Of a DNA stretch of 64,000 nucleotides, positions 14,827 to 55,419 are shown piece after piece (within the stretch, counting starts at the first letter, position 1; the number at the start of each line of letters is the position of its first letter). Source of the DNA: a virus; the IMG/VR virus record IMGVR_UViG_3300038427_000078. One strand, given 5' to 3'. The notes beneath the pieces are model-generated. The model had not been told where the DNA came from. It searched no databases and saw only the letters and a list, made by a program, of their open reading frames with translations. A program made the translations under genes and the position numbers.

Positions 14827-14922
14827 GCGCCTGTAGCTCAGTGGTCAACGGTTCTCTTCGGGGAGCCAAAGAGTTGCCGCCTTTCAAGCGGTAGGTCCGG
14901 GGTTCGATTCCCCGTAGGCGCA
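14827..14922 (+). tRNA. tRNA-Glu(TTC) with extra hairpin in D-loop
   Basis: Loop CTTTCAA; GGTTCTC-TTCG-GGGAGCC inside the D-loop. Confidence 0.8.
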
Positions 14923-16905: not shown

Positions 16906-17118
16906 CTCAACAACGAAGCGGAGAATCATGAAGCTCAGTAAGCTCAGTAAGCTAAGTCGTACATCCGAATTGCTCCCGTATCTTGAATCCGTTGAGCATT
17001 ACGCCAACGCTGCCGTATACCACGGCACCTTCGAGGGCGAACAGTTCACGTTGACCTTTACCTTCGGCCCTTGACTCGTCGCTTGACTTCTAGTCGTGGA
17101 CCGTGTAGACTACGGTCC

Positions 17119-18020: not shown

Positions 18021-18417
18021 GGGCCTTTCCCGGTAATCGATTGGGTAGGTTCGGCAGTATGTCATGCAGCGGTCGTCACACCTACCTGACAAAAGCCATA
18101 ACTGGCAACGCAACAGACACGCTCGCAATCCCCGCATCTCTCTTCGAGGTTCGGGCTAGCGACGTACTCGCTGTAGCCTAAGAAGCTACAAGCCGGGACC
18201 AGCCGAGTATCCTGGGAACAGAAACCTCGGAGGGCAGTGAGCGCCATGCCCTTGACGTGCAGAGTACCGTTGTAGTTACACCGCAAGGTGTTGGTAGCAC
18301 CCCGCGCGTTCCCGGACGTATAACCGGGTGGTGGAGGCGGGCCATGCCTGTCCCAAAGCTGCTAGAAGTGACGCCTGTACGAGACTCAAGACGGCAGTTC
18401 GACTCTGCCAAGGTCCA
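18021..18417 (+). ncRNA. ssrA: tmRNA; tag (A)GNATDTLAIPASLFEVRASDVLAVA at 18104-18181
   Basis: Acceptor GGGCCTT/AAGGTCC-A with G3-U70; T arm GGCAG-TTCGACT-CTGCC; ATAACT-GGC resume context. Confidence 0.9.
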
Positions 18418-18451
18418 CTAAAACAAGGTCCATCCGTGCTAGAATAGATGG

Positions 18452-18889
18452 ATGGGCAGAGAGCAAAGACGAGCAAAGCAATTGGGTATGCCGCATGGCA
18501 CAGCCATGCACCGCTTGCGTAAACGAGTGATGTTTTCACTAGCTCAGGAGTTGCACTTGGATCAGTGCATCGTGTGTAAGAGGATGATCGAAGATGCTGA
18601 CGACCTTAGCATCGAGCACATCCAGCCGTGGGAGGGCCGAGACACGTCCCTGTTTTGGGACATCACTAACATCGCTTTCTCTCATCGCTGGTGCAACCAA
18701 CCTCATACGCGACCGGGCAAGCCTCCGGTTCATGACCTCAAGCCCGACATGTGGTGGTGCTCCCACTGCGAACAAGAACTTCCGCTTGATCGATTCGGCC
18801 TCAAGACAGTGACAAGTGGAGCTAAACGACCACGAAACTACTGCAACAAATGCCGTACCGAACGTAAAGCAATGGGCCTCTCGGCCTAG
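18452..18889 (+). CDS. HNH endonuclease
   Basis: CIVC...SIEHIQPW...NIAFSHRWCN plus C-terminal Zn motif. Confidence 0.8.
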   Translation: MGREQRRAKQLGMPHGTAMHRLRKRVMFSLAQELHLDQCIVCKRMIEDADDLSIEHIQPWEGRDTSLFWDITNIAFSHRWCNQPHTRPGKPPVHDLKPDMWWCSHCEQELPLDRFGLKTVTSGAKRPRNYCNKCRTERKAMGLSA

Positions 18890-19572: not shown

Positions 19573-19645
19573 GCCCTTGTAGCTCAGAGGATAGAGCATC
19601 GGTTTCCTAAACCGTGTGTCGCGGGTTCGATTCCCTCCGGTGCCA
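19573..19645 (+). pseudogene. tRNA-Arg(CCT) with non-pairing 3' acceptor strand
   Basis: Loop TTCCTAA intact; GCCCTTG pairs poorly with CGGTGCC. Confidence 0.65.
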
Positions 19646-19661
19646 TGGTATACTGTTGGGT

Positions 19662-20003
19662 ATGAGTGATCAAGACCTAACAGAGCAGCAAGTAGTGGCT
19701 GCGGAGGCCGGTGTCGGAGACAGCATACAGGCCATCGCGGACCGCGCAGTCAAGGCCGTCGAGGTACTGGACTTGAGCGAGGGCGATGTTCTCGTAGTCA
19801 AGCTCGGCATCGATGACATGGGTGACGGACTCCCACCGTGGATTCCGGGACCAGCGGAGCTAGAGCAGGTGTCAGATGCCTTGACCGCGACAGTGCCAGA
19901 GGGCGTACGGGTGCTAGTTCACCACCTGGGAATCAACTTCCAGATCGTACGCGGCCTCGACACCAGTAACCCGGTCGTAGTCGAATCGCTGCCAACAGAG
20001 TAA
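19662..20003 (+). CDS. Stand-alone paralog of an internal portal segment
   Basis: KLGIDDMGDGLPPWIPGPAELEQV vs portal KLGIMDMGDGLPPWLPGPEELESV. Confidence 0.8.
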   Translation: MSDQDLTEQQVVAAEAGVGDSIQAIADRAVKAVEVLDLSEGDVLVVKLGIDDMGDGLPPWIPGPAELEQVSDALTATVPEGVRVLVHHLGINFQIVRGLDTSNPVVVESLPTE

Positions 20004-20006
20004 CAC

Positions 20007-20081
20007 GCGGGAATAGCTCAGCCAGGTTAGAGCACTTCTCTGATAAGGAAGGGGTCAGAGGTTCAAATCCTCTTTTCCGCA
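20007..20081 (+). tRNA. tRNA-Ile(GAT)
   Basis: Loop CTGATAA. Confidence 0.88.
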
Positions 20082-20273: not shown

Positions 20274-20606
20274 GTGGCATACAAGGATCCTCAGAAGCAG
20301 AAAGAAGCACAGCATCGGTCATATCTGCGTAACAAAGAGATAATCCTCAGGCGCAGTTCTGATCGCATCAAAGAGCTTCGACGCAAAGTGCGAGAGTACA
20401 AGGAGGAGCGTGGTTGTAGCGCGTGCGGGTACAACAAATACGGTGGGGCTATCGATGCTCATCACCCAAACGGCAAGGATAACCAAGAACAGTGCATTGC
20501 CCGTTTGTGCAAACGGGCCTTTCCGTGGGAGACAATCCTTGCGGAGCTTGAGAAGTGCATTCTTCTCTGTTCCAACTGTCATCGCGAGCACCATCGCGGT
20601 GAGTAG
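20274..20606 (+). CDS. HNH endonuclease
   Basis: CSAC...IDAHH...ELEKCILLCSNCHR. Confidence 0.85.
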   Translation: MAYKDPQKQKEAQHRSYLRNKEIILRRSSDRIKELRRKVREYKEERGCSACGYNKYGGAIDAHHPNGKDNQEQCIARLCKRAFPWETILAELEKCILLCSNCHREHHRGE

Positions 20607-28968: not shown

Positions 28969-29481
28969 ATGCCCCGTGATCGTATCAGACAAGAGTATTG
29001 CGCCAAGGGACATCTGCTTTCCGAGACAGCCCATGTCCGCGAGAACGGCAAGCGTAGCTGTAGCGTATGTCAGAAAGAACGACGAGAGGAACTAAAGGAA
29101 CGTCCCAAGATTTTCCTAGCAGAAAAGCGATGCGGTCGTTGCGAGGTTCCGAAGCCCCTGAACGAGTTCTATCGTGATGCTTCCAAGCCTGACGGCGTTG
29201 GTTATTACTGCAAGGTGTGTGAACGATGGATCAAACTGCTCTACAACTACGGTGTGACCGAGGAGGAATACAACGCCCTTTACGCGAAACAAGGTGGGTG
29301 TTGCGCCATCTGTGGGCACTGTCCTGTCCCGCCAGAACCGTTCTTGGTAGTGGATCACGTTCACGATACCGAGGTCGTGCGCGGACTGCTATGCGGAACC
29401 TGCAACACAGGACTTGGGATGTTGAAAGAGAACCCCGAGATTGTCGAGAAGGCATTGGAGTATCTGTATGAAGCTGCTTGA
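28969..29481 (+). CDS. Endonuclease VII-like homing endonuclease
   Basis: YGVTEEEY...QGGCCAIC...VDHVH...VRGLLCGTCNTGLG. Confidence 0.9.
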   Translation: MPRDRIRQEYCAKGHLLSETAHVRENGKRSCSVCQKERREELKERPKIFLAEKRCGRCEVPKPLNEFYRDASKPDGVGYYCKVCERWIKLLYNYGVTEEEYNALYAKQGGCCAICGHCPVPPEPFLVVDHVHDTEVVRGLLCGTCNTGLGMLKENPEIVEKALEYLYEAA

Positions 29482-31609
29482 CCAGGTGGAAAATTCCCTA
29501 GCGCCTAAGCACATCAGCATCATTGAGTTCGCTGAATCGTCAGACTACTGCGGCAAGACCCTCTATCCTCGGCAGGCCGTTCTTCTCAAGCTGCTCAACC
29601 TTGAGGAGCTAACAGGCGAGGAGGAGGACGTACTCGACTACTGGCTCAAGGGCGGGCGTAACGGTACCGAGATTGAGATTTCGCCCAATGTGCGCGAGCG
29701 TGTCGAATGGCTCCGCGAGAACGACTACCCGCACTTCCGCGAGGCTATCCTCGTCGGGGGTCGCCGTAGCTCCAAGGGATTCTGCACCGGCATCCAGATG
29801 GCGTACGTCATGTGGAACTGCTTGCAGTTGCAGGATCCTGGCGCGTACTACGGCATCGACCCGGAGAAGGAAATCTACTTCTCCTGTGTCGCCGGTTCCG
29901 AGGAACAGGCGAAGGAGTTCCAGTACGCCGACTTTTCGTCAACCGTGACGACGTGCAAGTCCTTCGACCCGTACATCATCAAGTCCCTAGAGACTGAGCT
30001 TCGCATCGCCACCGAGACTGACCTCCGTCGCATTCACACGGAGAAGGCCAAGGGGAACCGCATCCAGAAGGACATCGCTCGACTTCGAGGCAAGGCTCTT
30101 GCCGCGAACGCCGGTACGCTGCGTGGATCAGCTACCATGGCTATCTGCATAGACGAGATGGCGCACATGATCCCCGGTGAGTCGAAGGCTGCCGCTGATC
30201 AGGTCTACAACGCCGCCGACCCGTCCCTCGACCAGTTCGGCGTAGACGGCATGATGTTCTGCAACTCAAGCCCGTACTCCAAGGTGGGTATGTTCTTCGA
30301 CCGCTTCGAAGCGGCAAAGGTGAAGTTCGATCCTGACCGTCCGCTAGATGACGTTGTAGTCGTGGGTGAGGAGGGTGACATCGATATTCATGAACTCAAT
30401 GGCGACCCGCGTATCTTCACCTTGCAGTTCGCGTCATGGTCGCTCTTCGAGGGTTACCAGAAGTCGAAGCACGCCAAGCGCCTCAAATGGACCCTCATGG
30501 CTTGCCCGGAGTGGGACGAGGACGAGAAGAACGAGGACGGCACTCCGTACTGGAACGACAAAGACATCACCGCGATCAAGGCCGCACGTTCCAAGGAGAA
30601 ACAGAACCCGGAGACATACAAAGTCGAGCGTCGTGGCAAATTCGCAGAGGTCACCGAAGCGTACATCCCAGGTGGCGTCGTGGACAAAATGTTCGCGGGC
30701 CTCCCTATCGAATGGGTATCGAAGATGAACCCACGCACGCATGAGCAGGGACCGCTCGAACCTGTGTACGCGGAGTTGGCAACGAATGACATGGGCCGCG
30801 TGGGTGAGTACGGCAGGCACAAGTTCCACATCGATCCGTCATCCACCACCGCTGGATTCGGCTTCGCCATCGCGCATCCGGAGAACATCGTCAACGGGGC
30901 CACAATGGTCGAGGAGGAACACGTTGTCTTCGATGTCATCCAGCGCTGGCAGCCGCAGCACTTCGCGGGCAAAGTCATCGACTGGCACATCGTGCTCCCT
31001 GAACTCGTAGGCTTCGCGGAACTCTTCCGCCCGTTCGAGATTACCTTCGGCCAGCATGAGTCGCTACAGGCGATGCAGGAACTCGATGAAAAACTCCGCC
31101 AGAAAAACTACGGCACGCGCATCTTCCAGTCCAAAGAGACAGCGGAGCTAAACTGGAAGCGTTGGGAGGTCACCAAGACCTCGATGTACTCTGGCTACGT
31201 CCACGCGCCGAAAGACACCGAGGATGCCAAGTTCGCTGCTCTTGAGTTGAAGTTCTTGCAGAAGCAGGCAGGCGCAGGGCGCTGGCCTCGCATCGACAAG
31301 CAGGAAATGGGTCCGGTCCAGACGAAGGATATGGCGGACTGTATAGCCGAGTGTGTGTCCACATTGATAGGCAATCAGATAGCGAACCGCACCCGTGACC
31401 GATTGACCCACTCGGCCCTATTGGGCGGCTCTCCGGGCGGCTACCAGATCGGCCTCGGCAGCAACCCAGCAGTGGGCGGAGCCGGTCCTCCGAACATCTC
31501 CGAGTATTACTCCCGCCGTGATGAGAAGATCGGCGGCGGAGGCAATCCGGCCCGAGGAGTGCTGGGAGGCGGCAGGAACCGCCGCAACCGGAACAAGGCA
31601 AGATGGTAA
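29468..31609 (+). CDS. terL: Terminase large subunit
   Basis: YPRQ, GRRSSKG, ICIDE, NSSP, HIDPS nuclease motif, KDMAD. Confidence 0.85.
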   Translation: MKLLDQVENSLAPKHISIIEFAESSDYCGKTLYPRQAVLLKLLNLEELTGEEEDVLDYWLKGGRNGTEIEISPNVRERVEWLRENDYPHFREAILVGGRRSSKGFCTGIQMAYVMWNCLQLQDPGAYYGIDPEKEIYFSCVAGSEEQAKEFQYADFSSTVTTCKSFDPYIIKSLETELRIATETDLRRIHTEKAKGNRIQKDIARLRGKALAANAGTLRGSATMAICIDEMAHMIPGESKAAADQVYNAADPSLDQFGVDGMMFCNSSPYSKVGMFFDRFEAAKVKFDPDRPLDDVVVVGEEGDIDIHELNGDPRIFTLQFASWSLFEGYQKSKHAKRLKWTLMACPEWDEDEKNEDGTPYWNDKDITAIKAARSKEKQNPETYKVERRGKFAEVTEAYIPGGVVDKMFAGLPIEWVSKMNPRTHEQGPLEPVYAELATNDMGRVGEYGRHKFHIDPSSTTAGFGFAIAHPENIVNGATMVEEEHVVFDVIQRWQPQHFAGKVIDWHIVLPELVGFAELFRPFEITFGQHESLQAMQELDEKLRQKNYGTRIFQSKETAELNWKRWEVTKTSMYSGYVHAPKDTEDAKFAALELKFLQKQAGAGRWPRIDKQEMGPVQTKDMADCIAECVSTLIGNQIANRTRDRLTHSALLGGSPGGYQIGLGSNPAVGGAGPPNISEYYSRRDEKIGGGGNPARGVLGGGRNRRNRNKARW

Positions 31610-35489: not shown

Positions 35490-35533
35490 TAGGGAAGGCT
35501 CCAAGTGGGGTCAAATCAACGACGTAAGTATTG

Positions 35534-38254
35534 ATGGCTGACGAGAACCAACTACTACGGGCAGAGCTAGACAAACTCCGTAGACACGGGATGACTCTTC
35601 CGCGTCACAGCGGACGCGCTGCTCAGTCTTACGGCGAGGCAGTTCACACGAATCACGCGCTTCTACAGGCGGCAGGGCATGACCTAGACCGCCTCGGAGT
35701 CAGGCTTGGGCGCAGCATCACGCAGGACAACTACGATTCGTCAGTCAAGAACATGCTGGGCGAGAACCAGGCCAAGATGCAGGCCATGCAGAGCAAACGC
35801 AGCATGAGCTATCGCAGCCAGGGAGCTAGCCCGCACCTGGGCGCAAGCCGTCGTGAGCACTACCGCATGTCAGCGGTTGACCACCAATCCAACTTCGGTG
35901 GAAACCCCGGCGTCGGAACCTCGACAGGAGGCGATGCCTACAACGCCATCCCGCGTTTCTACGATCCGCTTGAGTATTGGGACATCAGCGGCCTGCCGTG
36001 GAATGTTGCGGACGAAGGCCATCGTCACAAGCTCCACAAGTGGCTGCGCTTGTACTACGCCACCCACTACCTCGTCCCGATCCTGATCGACATCTTCACC
36101 CGCTTCCCGCTCGTCGGCATGGAGCTTGAGTGCAAGGATCCGAAGCTCAAAGAAGTGTACGAGTCGATCTTCCTCGACAACCTCAAATACGAAGACTTCC
36201 TCGTTGGCCTCGGTCGCGAGTATTGGGTCGTCGGAGAGGCGTTCCCTCTCGCGTCCTTTGATGAGGACTTGGGCGTGTGGGAGCATGAGGAGTTGATCAA
36301 CCCCGAGGACATCGTGATCAACAACTTCCCGTTCCTCAACTCCAAGCAGTTGAAGATCGCTCCGCCCGACTACCTCAAGCGCATCGCACAGACCAAGCTC
36401 CCGGCTCGCGAGTATTACCTCCTGCGCGAGAACTTCGAGGACTTGATCCCGTACTTGCTCAAGGGTGAACACATCCCGATCAGCCCGGTGATGATGCGCC
36501 ACGTCGCCAACAAGATGAACAATTGGGACGACCACGGCACCCCGATTCTTCTACGCGGCATGCGAACCTTGCTCCATGAGGAAAAGCTCATGGCCTCGCA
36601 GGAAGCCATCGCTGAGCGTCTGTACTCGCCGTTGATCCTCGCCAAGCTAGGGATCATGGACATGGGCGACGGCCTCCCGCCGTGGCTCCCCGGCCCGGAA
36701 GAGCTTGAGTCCGTCCGTGACGACCTCGACATCGCGCTGTCATCTGACTTCCGCGTCATGGTCCACCACTTCGGCCTTGAGATTTCCAACGTGTTCGGGC
36801 GCGAGCAGATGCCTCGCCTGGGCGACGACTTCGACCGCATCGAGCGCAGGCTCATGCAGGTGTTCGGCGTGAACCCGTCACTGCTCTCAGCGGGCAGCAA
36901 CACACAGCCGTACGCCTCTAGCGCGCTACAAGCCGAGTTCATGAACCAGATCCTCCGCACGTTCCAGGGCATGCTCAAGGAGCACTACCGCGAGCGTGCT
37001 CTCGTCGTGGCTGAGGCGCAGGGCCACTACGACTACGAGACAAAGGGTGACACACGCATCCCGATTTGGGAAAAAGTCGCCATCACCGACGAGGAGACAG
37101 GTGAGCGTCACATCGAGGAGGTACAGAAGCTCCTGGTCCCGGACCTCAAGTTCGCGACCTTCGACATGCGCGACCAGGCTACCGAGCGTCAGTTCCTCAT
37201 GGCCCTCCGTCAGATGGGCGTCCCGATCCCGAACGAGGATCTGCTCATCGGCATCGACTGGAACTACCGCGAAAAGGTCTTGCAGTACAACCGCGAGTTG
37301 AAGGAGCAGACCATCGCTCAGCAGCGCGCGAAGCTCGACACCTACATCGCTCTCGCCACGCAGGGACTCCCGATCCCGCTCGACCTCAAGGCCGAGGTTG
37401 AGTCCGTGCTAGTCCACGGAGCAGGCGCAGGTGGGGGTATGCCCGAAGGCGGCGGTGGAGGCATGGCAGGAGCACAGCAGCAGAAACCAGGCGGCATGCC
37501 CGGATCAGTTGGTCCTGCCGGTGGCCCGCCTGAACTTGGACCTCCTGGCGGCGGTGGTGGAGGCATCAACATGCCGCCTCCGCCTCCTGGCCTTGGCTCA
37601 GGACCGGGCACCGCGCCTCCTGGCGGCGGAGCACCGGCAGCTAGCCCGATGGCTCCTGGTCCCGCAGGCACCGTCCCGCAGGTGAGCAACGAGCGTCGTC
37701 CTGGCCTGAAATACAACACGTCGAACCAGGGCCACCCGATCATCGGTGCTCGCGAGGGCAGCGACTTCGATCAGTTCATGGCCGACTACCCCGACCTGGG
37801 CCTCCCGTTCGTGGACTACGTGGCCGACAACACAGAGGACGAGCTAGACAAGATCGACCGTGGTACCCTGCTATCGTTGAGCAAGGCATGGCCGAAGAAT
37901 GCAGCAGCATACCAGCACAAGGTTGCAGAGGAGGTCGCGGTATATCTCGCGAACACCCCGGATTCAGAGCCGGAGCCTGCTAAAGTAGAGCCACCAGTTG
38001 AGTTCACACTCAAGGCGAATCAGGAGCTACGGAAAGTAAAGGGTGAGCCAGATCGCATCATCGAGACACCTTCCAAGAAACGGATCAAGCACAAGGTCGC
38101 GACTGACAAGAAGTACACTGTCGTTGACCCGGTGGAAAAGCCGCTTCGTGTAACACCCGAGGAAGAAGCCAAGCTCCGCAAGGCGTATTTCAAGGCCAAC
38201 AAGATACCACTACCAAAGGATGAGAATGAGTCAACCGAGCCAAAGTCCTCTTGA
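35534..38254 (+). CDS. Portal protein with Gly/Pro-rich C-terminal extension
   Basis: Size and context after TerL; REYWVVGEAF, HGTPILLR, VFGVNPSLL. Confidence 0.8.
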   Translation: MADENQLLRAELDKLRRHGMTLPRHSGRAAQSYGEAVHTNHALLQAAGHDLDRLGVRLGRSITQDNYDSSVKNMLGENQAKMQAMQSKRSMSYRSQGASPHLGASRREHYRMSAVDHQSNFGGNPGVGTSTGGDAYNAIPRFYDPLEYWDISGLPWNVADEGHRHKLHKWLRLYYATHYLVPILIDIFTRFPLVGMELECKDPKLKEVYESIFLDNLKYEDFLVGLGREYWVVGEAFPLASFDEDLGVWEHEELINPEDIVINNFPFLNSKQLKIAPPDYLKRIAQTKLPAREYYLLRENFEDLIPYLLKGEHIPISPVMMRHVANKMNNWDDHGTPILLRGMRTLLHEEKLMASQEAIAERLYSPLILAKLGIMDMGDGLPPWLPGPEELESVRDDLDIALSSDFRVMVHHFGLEISNVFGREQMPRLGDDFDRIERRLMQVFGVNPSLLSAGSNTQPYASSALQAEFMNQILRTFQGMLKEHYRERALVVAEAQGHYDYETKGDTRIPIWEKVAITDEETGERHIEEVQKLLVPDLKFATFDMRDQATERQFLMALRQMGVPIPNEDLLIGIDWNYREKVLQYNRELKEQTIAQQRAKLDTYIALATQGLPIPLDLKAEVESVLVHGAGAGGGMPEGGGGGMAGAQQQKPGGMPGSVGPAGGPPELGPPGGGGGGINMPPPPPGLGSGPGTAPPGGGAPAASPMAPGPAGTVPQVSNERRPGLKYNTSNQGHPIIGAREGSDFDQFMADYPDLGLPFVDYVADNTEDELDKIDRGTLLSLSKAWPKNAAAYQHKVAEEVAVYLANTPDSEPEPAKVEPPVEFTLKANQELRKVKGEPDRIIETPSKKRIKHKVATDKKYTVVDPVEKPLRVTPEEEAKLRKAYFKANKIPLPKDENESTEPKSS

Positions 38255-54936: not shown

Positions 54937-55419
54937 ATGACCGCTATCCAAGACATCAAAACCACCCTTGAGAACCGTCTAGAGCTTCTAGACTATGCCT
55001 GCGAACAGGAGAGGCCCGGTACCGCTGCGTTCGATGAACTGTGCGGTCGCCACGAAGAGAGCAAGACCATGTTGGAGCTAGTCAACTACTTCGCCACGAC
55101 TCGCGAGGACGTTGAAGATGAGGCTCCCGCCTACTGCGACTGCGACGAGTGCGCCTGCGAGTACGACGAGGACGACTTGGACATCAGTCTCACCATCGAC
55201 GGCTCCGAGGTAGTCTCCCTGGACGAGTTCCAAGAGATTCGTGCCTACAACTACGAGCTTGCCATTCGCACTCTTGTCCAGCAGGAGGCGAAGCTGTCAA
55301 CCTATTGGGCGCTCAAAGAGCTAGGTCTACCGATCCCGTACGACCTACGCAACGAGTGCTGGCCGCTCGACCCGGACAATCCTGACAACCAGCCTCGCGG
55401 CACGTCCTGGCAGCCCTAG
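54937..55419 (+). CDS. Protein with a copy of a portal C-terminal segment
   Basis: YNYELAIRTLVQQEAKLSTYWALKELGLPIPYDL vs portal YNRELKEQTIAQQRAKLDTYIALATQGLPIPLDL. Confidence 0.75.
   Translation: MTAIQDIKTTLENRLELLDYACEQERPGTAAFDELCGRHEESKTMLELVNYFATTREDVEDEAPAYCDCDECACEYDEDDLDISLTIDGSEVVSLDEFQEIRAYNYELAIRTLVQQEAKLSTYWALKELGLPIPYDLRNECWPLDPDNPDNQPRGTSWQP

Follow-up and report, generated by a model that had tools for sequence, protein, structure and literature searches.

A free-standing paralogue of a portal sub-domain in a large uncultured phage belongs to a widespread accessory family

The window analyzed here, a stretch of 64,000 nt from IMG/VR virus record IMGVR_UViG_3300038427_000078, derives from a large uncultured phage in which the interval 12.7-23.9 kb holds about 29 tRNAs and a tmRNA. 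Among cultured phages, the closest to it are Bixzunavirus (cluster C) mycobacteriophages together with some phages of Gordonia and Rhodococcus, a kinship that is visible at the protein level only (about 30% identity in the region of interest), and a megablast search of cultured phages with the locus described below gave no match. The window DNA recurs in many peat and wetland metagenome runs (24), and one of its proteins is also present on a contig of 172,635 bp. The phage encodes a large terminase (29441-31609, +; phrog_2, E 1.9e-12) and a portal protein of 907 aa (35531-38254, +; phrog_2833, E 5.7e-149), the homologs of which in cultured relatives are annotated as portal protein. Metagenomic portals that are 72-89% identical to it in the core are very common (799 at E<=1e-10). 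Many portals of this clade measure 980-1560 aa and contain intein or homing-endonuclease domains (P0095, P0123, P0125, P0127, P0039, P0169, P0188, P0198), and the large-terminase homolog on contig L005 (1-2558) shows a faint LAGLIDADG match.

Within the tRNA island, a small ORF (19662-20003, +) encodes an acidic protein of 113 aa (net charge -15, pI 4.05). Directly 5' of it lies a tRNA-like gene with a CCT (Arg) anticodon loop (19573-19645, +; Rfam RF00005, 44.2 bits; no ARAGORN call), which may be a degenerate tRNA-Arg in view of two mismatches in the acceptor stem. On the 3' side, tRNA-Ile(GAT) (20007-20081, +) starts 3 nt past the stop of the small ORF. There is no terminator-like site between the ORF and this tRNA, and RNase P processing at tRNA-Ile would set the 3' end of the mRNA. 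Further out, the locus is flanked by an HNH/endonuclease VII-like gene upstream (18452-18889, +; phrog_23251, E 1.5e-13) and an HNH endonuclease gene downstream (20274-20606, +; phrog_2255, E 3e-20). Elsewhere in the island, the phage-encoded tmRNA (18021-18418) specifies a tag peptide ending in ...VLAVA, and at 14827-14922 ARAGORN predicts a 96-nt tRNA with a two-base anticodon and no definite identity (Rfam tRNA score 57.5 bits), which may have an insert or intron inside.

The interval between the tRNA-like gene and the small ORF is occupied by an extended -10 promoter-like element, TGgTATACT (19646-19654, +), recognized from the sequence, in which TG lies at 19646-19647 and TATACT at 19649-19654; a 7-nt spacer (19655-19661) separates the hexamer from the ATG at 19662. 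A TATACT promoter inside the tRNA island had been proposed in a preliminary description of this DNA, and the predicted element is indeed kept in four orthologs, as TGnTATA[C/A]T located 6-7 nt 5' of the ATG: it reads TGcTATACT-6 nt-ATG in L001, TGcTATAAT-7 nt-ATG in L002, where it lies within the last codons of the upstream gene, and TGcTATACT-7 nt-ATG in L019, which encodes a 45% identical protein. Upstream of the TG, alignment shows the sequences of the window, L001 and L002 to be unrelated. Retention of the element despite unrelated flanks suggests that the conserved unit consists of promoter plus ORF. A generic -35/-10 scanner reports no pair at the small ORF, as can be understood from an extended -10 that has no -35. 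Judged by the established architecture of actinobacterial promoters, the element fits a leaderless transcript made by the host polymerase; an independent promoter, as expected for a moron-like gene, is present at the level of the motif. More distant members of the family overlap or closely trail the upstream gene, some with Shine-Dalgarno-like sequences.

The preliminary description had matched the small protein to an internal part of the portal at about 36644-36785, coordinates that prove right to within about 15 nt. Residues 43-98 of the small protein align without gaps to portal residues 368-423 (36632-36799, +), with 30 of 56 positions identical (54%; BLASTP, E 2e-18), and the phrog_2833 portal profile matches the small ORF independently (E 8.1e-09; residues 43-99 against profile positions 332-387 of 874). 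With tblastn the homology stretches to portal residues 325-423 (37% over 116 columns, E 1e-13), the weaker part beginning at residue 325 (nt 36503), and the Bxz1 portal aligns with residues 6-101 of the small protein. Relative to the Bxz1 portal, the small protein has a 10-residue insertion, AVEVLDLSEG, before its first strand. In a six-frame HMM scan of the window the domain turns up only twice, once in the small ORF and once in the portal. The full portal architecture (wing, two stem helices, clip, crown) is absent from the small protein, the 113 aa of which cover about 56-95 of some 500 core positions. From its sequence, therefore, we regard the small ORF as a paralog of one portal sub-domain and not as a portal. 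Pfam gave no match for the small protein, for 63 family members or for longer and fused members.

At the nucleotide level the small ORF and the portal segment are 58% identical, with 61, 77 and 37.5% identity at the first, second and third codon positions. Synonymous divergence is saturated (pS 0.71) and the longest exact run is 8 nt; these values, together with the low identity at third positions, indicate that the paralogy is old. Recent duplication, an assembly artifact and gene conversion with the phage's own portal were set aside as the divergence is too old, and gene conversion is also contradicted by the finding that small proteins are no nearer to their own portal than to the portals of other phages.

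An AF2 model of the small protein, based on a 63-row family alignment, has a pLDDT of 90-95 over residues 40-100. The N-terminal helix (residues 12-31; 19695-19754, +; pLDDT 58-69) corresponds in the alignments to the last part of the portal helix just before the clip. It is followed by a clip-like core, delimited by BLASTP and AF2 (residues 43-98; 19788-19955, +), composed of a strand, the conserved loop DMGDGLPPWIPGP, a helix and two strands. In the model the strands span residues 43-48, 83-88 and 92-96 and the helix residues 64-77, all at pLDDT above 90. The loop, with the pattern GI.DMGDG.PPW.PGP.EL, is the most invariant one of the portal and is retained in the small protein.

For T4 gp20, the clip (residues 279-358) has been described as three strands and one helix linking two stem helices, exposed outside the capsid, where terminase and neck attach (PMC4493910). 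In the portal of the window, the segment copied in the small ORF lies between a long helix (338-364) and helices 430-444 and 449-453, after which the AF2 model has a 37-residue helix (461-497), a beta-sheet and terminal helices. In the small-protein model a first helix is followed by just one further helix and three strands, the set that defines the T4 clip, and on this ground we accept the clip as the best reading of the copied segment, inferred from the order of secondary-structure elements rather than from a confident three-dimensional model. The preliminary description had placed the segment where the clip is expected. The element order agrees with that placement and with the T4 definition, whereas the AF2 model of the portal core (residues 120-640, 25-row alignment) is poor, with a mean pLDDT of 55 and values below 50 at 321-471, which makes it impossible to map the copied segment in three dimensions. 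Of the two structure predictions that had been suggested, that of the small-protein core is thus confident and that of the portal core is not. A Foldseek search with the poor portal model returned portals as top matches (HFTV1, P74-26, G20c, SPP1, T4) that align along nearly their whole length, at non-significant values (E about 0.1), and sequence searches of the PDB with the portal alone and with its profile matched no solved portal. For the small-protein model, Foldseek against the PDB gave nothing at E<=0.001, a wide VIA-align search retrieved no portal chain (best Z 4.7, for DinI, rmsd 6.6 Å), and the nearest folds in the ESM Atlas are unnamed viral clusters of 78-100 aa. A complex prediction of portal residues 325-455 with the small protein scored 0.17 (mark 0.32) and carries no weight either way.

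The small ORF had initially been treated as a one-off, and the surveys place it instead in a large family of about 65 clusters. Independent metagenome contigs carry free-standing homologs of 98-104 aa with 71-79% identity. An exhaustive search without a profile, run over 1.84 billion representatives, yielded 84 matches, about 65 of which are distinct small-protein clusters (50% identity) of 67-220 aa with a Met start and the same core pattern; the remainder are about a dozen full-length portals and a few portal fragments. A metagenome scan added one new small homolog (L019), all its other matches being portals, and IMG/VR yielded no relatives when scanned with the small protein or with a sub-alignment. 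Members of the family are strongly acidic (median pI 4.5, with 59 of 72 below pI 5). It has no name in Pfam, and in PHROGs it is represented only by the portal profile itself.

The reading frame is intact in every copy found, and pairwise Nei-Gojobori estimates among the copies of the window, L001, L004 and L002 give a dN/dS of 0.13-0.19 at dS 0.9-1.7. Selection on the amino acids, which the differing third codon positions had suggested (37.5% identical), is borne out by these ratios, and neutral decay, the alternative that a homolog survey with dN/dS was meant to address, is contradicted. Divergence is nevertheless faster than in the parent protein: the small proteins of three phages are 44-56% identical, versus 60-69% for their portals, and a small protein resembles the portal of its own phage no more closely than the portals of other phages. 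In a tree of the shared block (65 columns, inner branches mostly unresolved) the portals form one clade (SH-aLRT 98), with 69 small proteins across the branch. Small proteins and portals nevertheless separate clearly, in keeping with a single ancient origin. A third free-standing type (P0060, P0061, P0072), starting with MC.YDF..DRW, adjoins the portals on the tree.

The position of the small gene varies over at least five contexts, as would be expected of a moron-like gene. In the window, L001 and L004 it is located in the tRNA island, between tRNAs and HNH genes. It follows the portal in two other contigs, one gene after portal and phosphoesterase in L033 and 2 kb after the portal in L005. 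In L006 its start and the stop codon of recA overlap and an exonuclease follows two genes later, and in L002 it lies between the homolog of this exonuclease and a RuvC-like gene, with an endonuclease VII gene nearby. L031 has it in a long array of tiny genes, and in P0015 it stands alone on the opposite strand among baseplate and tail genes. The family HMM detects the portal only, and no free-standing copy, in Bxz1, Tonenili, Skog, RedWattleHog and Finch. The shifting position, the absence from these five cultured relatives and the divergence that is faster than that of the portal identify it, at the level of sequence comparison, as a mobile accessory gene rather than a core morphogenesis gene. 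Taken as a whole, the comparisons show a large, unnamed family of phage proteins, 70-150 aa in size, that evolves under purifying selection and behaves as a self-contained accessory (moron-like) gene.

Two of these contexts have further features. On L001, a 14-bp direct repeat (CCAGGTTAGAGCAC) is found on both sides of the small-ORF cassette (2259-2284 and 2614-2627). The cassette lies inside a broken tRNA-Ile-like gene, of which an intact acceptor and D-arm are present upstream, and the next ORF, an HNH gene, begins at the apparent anticodon-loop position; the arrangement looks like nested insertions into a tRNA gene. On L002 (1298-2032) and L006 (10609-11433), homologous proteins of 244 and 274 aa (39% identity) with a nuclease-like W.HPS..C motif are encoded next to the small gene, in company with recA or RuvC-like genes, although the two contexts differ in other respects.

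A portal fragment could have been dragged into the tRNA island by homing endonucleases and persist there as a passenger, unexpressed or useless. Such an origin would account for the HNH genes that flank the small ORF, for the L001 cassette inside a broken tRNA-Ile-like gene with its direct repeat, and for the frequency of inteins in the portals of the clade. A non-functional passenger is however difficult to reconcile with intact frames in every copy, a dN/dS of 0.13-0.19 at saturated dS, a conserved promoter element, a diverse family that clusters apart from the portals on the tree, and a confidently predicted fold. We consider this reading very improbable and close to refuted, nearly excluded by selection and conservation.

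The clip-like segment is not the only part of the portal found outside it. A second free-standing portal-fragment protein of 160 aa is encoded at 54937-55419 (+; BLASTP 51%, E 5e-10). Its residues 99-141 (nt 55231-55359) match portal residues 581-623 (37271-37399, +), where the portal core ends in its final helices (model residues 460-492 and 498-508). In this ORF the portal motif is preceded on its N-terminal side by an acidic, Cys-rich segment, and a word-index search for homologs of the ORF returned only the ORF itself. In P0021, P0030/P0092 (L005) and P0052 the 581-623 motif is joined, N-terminally, to a clip-like domain in one protein, and in P0066 it is C-terminal to the clip-like domain. 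Judged by sequence, repeated copying has thus involved two portal parts that lie apart from each other in the portal, and the copies have been joined in either order. P0083 has two clip-like domains in tandem, and P0059 combines a portal-type piece with a small-type domain.

For the small ORF the preliminary description had suggested three roles, as a decoy for portal-sensing defenses, a packaging regulator or an inhibitor of related phages, on which its changing position, its absence from cultured relatives and the fusions bear only indirectly. The overlap with recA and the nearby exonuclease in L006, and the exonuclease homolog, RuvC-like and endonuclease VII neighbors in L002, would suit a beta-alpha-beta-beta unit that was recruited long ago to a task that has nothing to do with the portal (host takeover, replication or DNA recombination, for instance), so that the resemblance to the portal is only historical. 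The ancient duplication seen in the tree agrees with such a neofunctionalization, as does the best, weak structural match, DinI bound to the RecA filament (Z 4.7, rmsd 6.6 Å). However, the most conserved residues of the small family are those of the loop that is invariant in portals, which speaks for an interaction surface that was kept and not for a scaffold put to new use. Moreover, a second, independent portal motif was also copied and fused to the clip-like domain, the recombination context is seen in only 2 of about 7 contexts, and the DinI match is within noise. We therefore regard a repurposed unit as unlikely.

Portal proteins are among the most conserved phage proteins; terminase docks and the neck attaches at them, and bacterial immune sensors are known to be triggered by them. 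One possibility for the small protein is interference with packaging or assembly. As a soluble copy of the clip it would bind a clip partner that the phage itself encodes, whether the large terminase (itself a candidate clip ligand), the adaptor that completes the head or, through the inter-subunit beta-sheet, a portal protomer, and would either time the phage's own packaging and assembly or sabotage co-infecting relatives. The clip of T4 is the docking site for terminase and neck (PMC4493910), conservation in the small family centers on the same loop as in portals, and in L033 and L005 the small gene is situated directly 3' of the terminase-portal block. Co-infection is plausible as well, as related phages are abundant in the same habitats (799 portals; 24 peat and wetland runs). 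Against interference, the gene is absent from cultured phages with the same portal family and its position varies, neither of which is expected of a core morphogenesis factor. With clip and terminase so conserved in the clade, an inhibitor of rivals would strike the phage's own machinery too, and the small proteins are as distant from the portal of their own phage as from other portals. Finally, the fusions with the crown-end motif have no terminase-docking role. Interference with packaging or assembly is accordingly a doubtful explanation in our view, which we rank second.

The reading that we rank first, and hold tentatively, is that the small protein is a portal mimic aimed at host sensors of the portal. 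The small protein would keep the most invariant loop of the portal on a stand-alone fold, and it is probably soluble, independently folding and expressed early, judging by the model and the promoter motif; the host-type extended -10 element and leaderless transcript would allow it to be made before the late portal. A soluble fold, early expression and an invariant loop together suggest competition for a factor that recognizes the clip, which a soluble clip mimic would occupy. The likeliest target would be a host immune receptor that senses the portal (an Avs4/Avs11-type STAND or similar), and the mimic could bind this receptor without the rest of the portal fold that is needed for activation. 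The ORF at 54937-55419, with the second portal motif, might work alike, and phages that fuse both portal motifs would make a two-epitope mimic.

A mimic of this kind explains the early host-type promoter, the shifting position and the patchy presence of the gene. It also explains why the sequence diverges fast while one loop stays fixed, and why two unrelated pieces of the portal are fused. There are several arguments against it. A fragment bearing the epitope could trigger the sensor rather than block it. The described STAND sensors recognize the portal and many core virion proteins via extended, fold-level interfaces (bioRxiv 10.64898/2026.01.04.697583); given such large interfaces, a 60-aa piece may bind too weakly. 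The location of the gene just after the portal in several phages also fits a morphogenetic role, and the assignment of the copied segment to the clip is topological only. We know of no precedent for a phage decoy copied from one of its own structural proteins, and the literature searched contained none.

In a broader form of the sensor-mimic reading, large soil actinophages would carry a self-mimic toolkit, that is, small early copies of the invariant surfaces of their own virion proteins, including the portal clip and the crown-end motif of the portal. By the time the real structural proteins appear, the pattern-recognition receptors of the host (Avs-type STANDs and the like) would already be saturated with these copies. 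We consider such a toolkit improbable; if true, it would represent a new class of phage anti-immunity strategy.

Comparison with known systems shows where the small protein resembles them and where it departs from them. With the portal clip, as found in T4 gp20 (279-358) and in the phrog_2833 portals of Bixzunavirus-like actinophages, it shares significant homology to the segment between the long helices, a predicted fold of one helix and three strands, and the invariant loop. In contrast to the portal clip, it is a separate protein of 113 aa that lacks a wing, a second stem helix and a crown. It also has the 10-residue insertion and its own promoter-like element, and evolves much faster than the portal. 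Like phage morons and anti-defense genes, the small gene has its own promoter-like element, is small, encodes a protein with a pI of about 4, varies in position and is missing in some relatives. Unlike morons it has no terminator of its own and is followed by a tRNA, and unlike anti-defense genes it derives from a structural gene of the phage itself and not from an unrelated fold or from mimicry of host or DNA.

Poxvirus K3L, which mimics eIF2alpha, is an example of a viral pseudosubstrate or domain mimic. If the small protein is a sensor mimic, it would resemble K3L-type mimics in that a truncated homolog offers one recognition surface as a competitor. Those mimics copy a host protein, whereas the small ORF copies a viral one, and the mechanism here is putative. 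DinI, a regulator of RecA, is likewise a small acidic alpha/beta protein, and one family member is translationally coupled to recA (L006 only). The match between DinI and the small-protein model is weak (Z 4.7, rmsd 6.6 Å over 55 residues) and in the noise range, and no sequence similarity between DinI and the small protein was found.

In the literature searched we found no description of free-standing clip paralogs, and to our knowledge a widespread, selectively maintained family of free-standing clip copies is new. We take the family to be a phage accessory protein that arose when part of a structural gene was duplicated, and give only a minority chance to the view that it embodies a new anti-immunity principle. 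Should the mimics target host sensors, that principle would be the use of self-derived decoys. Should the small proteins act on terminase or portal instead, they would constitute a new class of packaging or assembly regulators, or inter-phage weapons. Either way, the family provides a compact version of the clip domain that is predicted to fold independently, with which clip-ligand interactions are directly testable in vitro.

The promoter-like element of the small ORF has counterparts elsewhere in the window. Further -10-like hexamers are found 6-7 nt before an ATG at 17106, 18440, 20617, 21625, 60730 and 63206. The ORFs behind these six hexamers encode 58-260 aa, and some of the sites have a TTGACA or TTGACT -35 or a TGn extension. 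This distribution suggests a class of leaderless, host-type promoters that is concentrated in the tRNA island.
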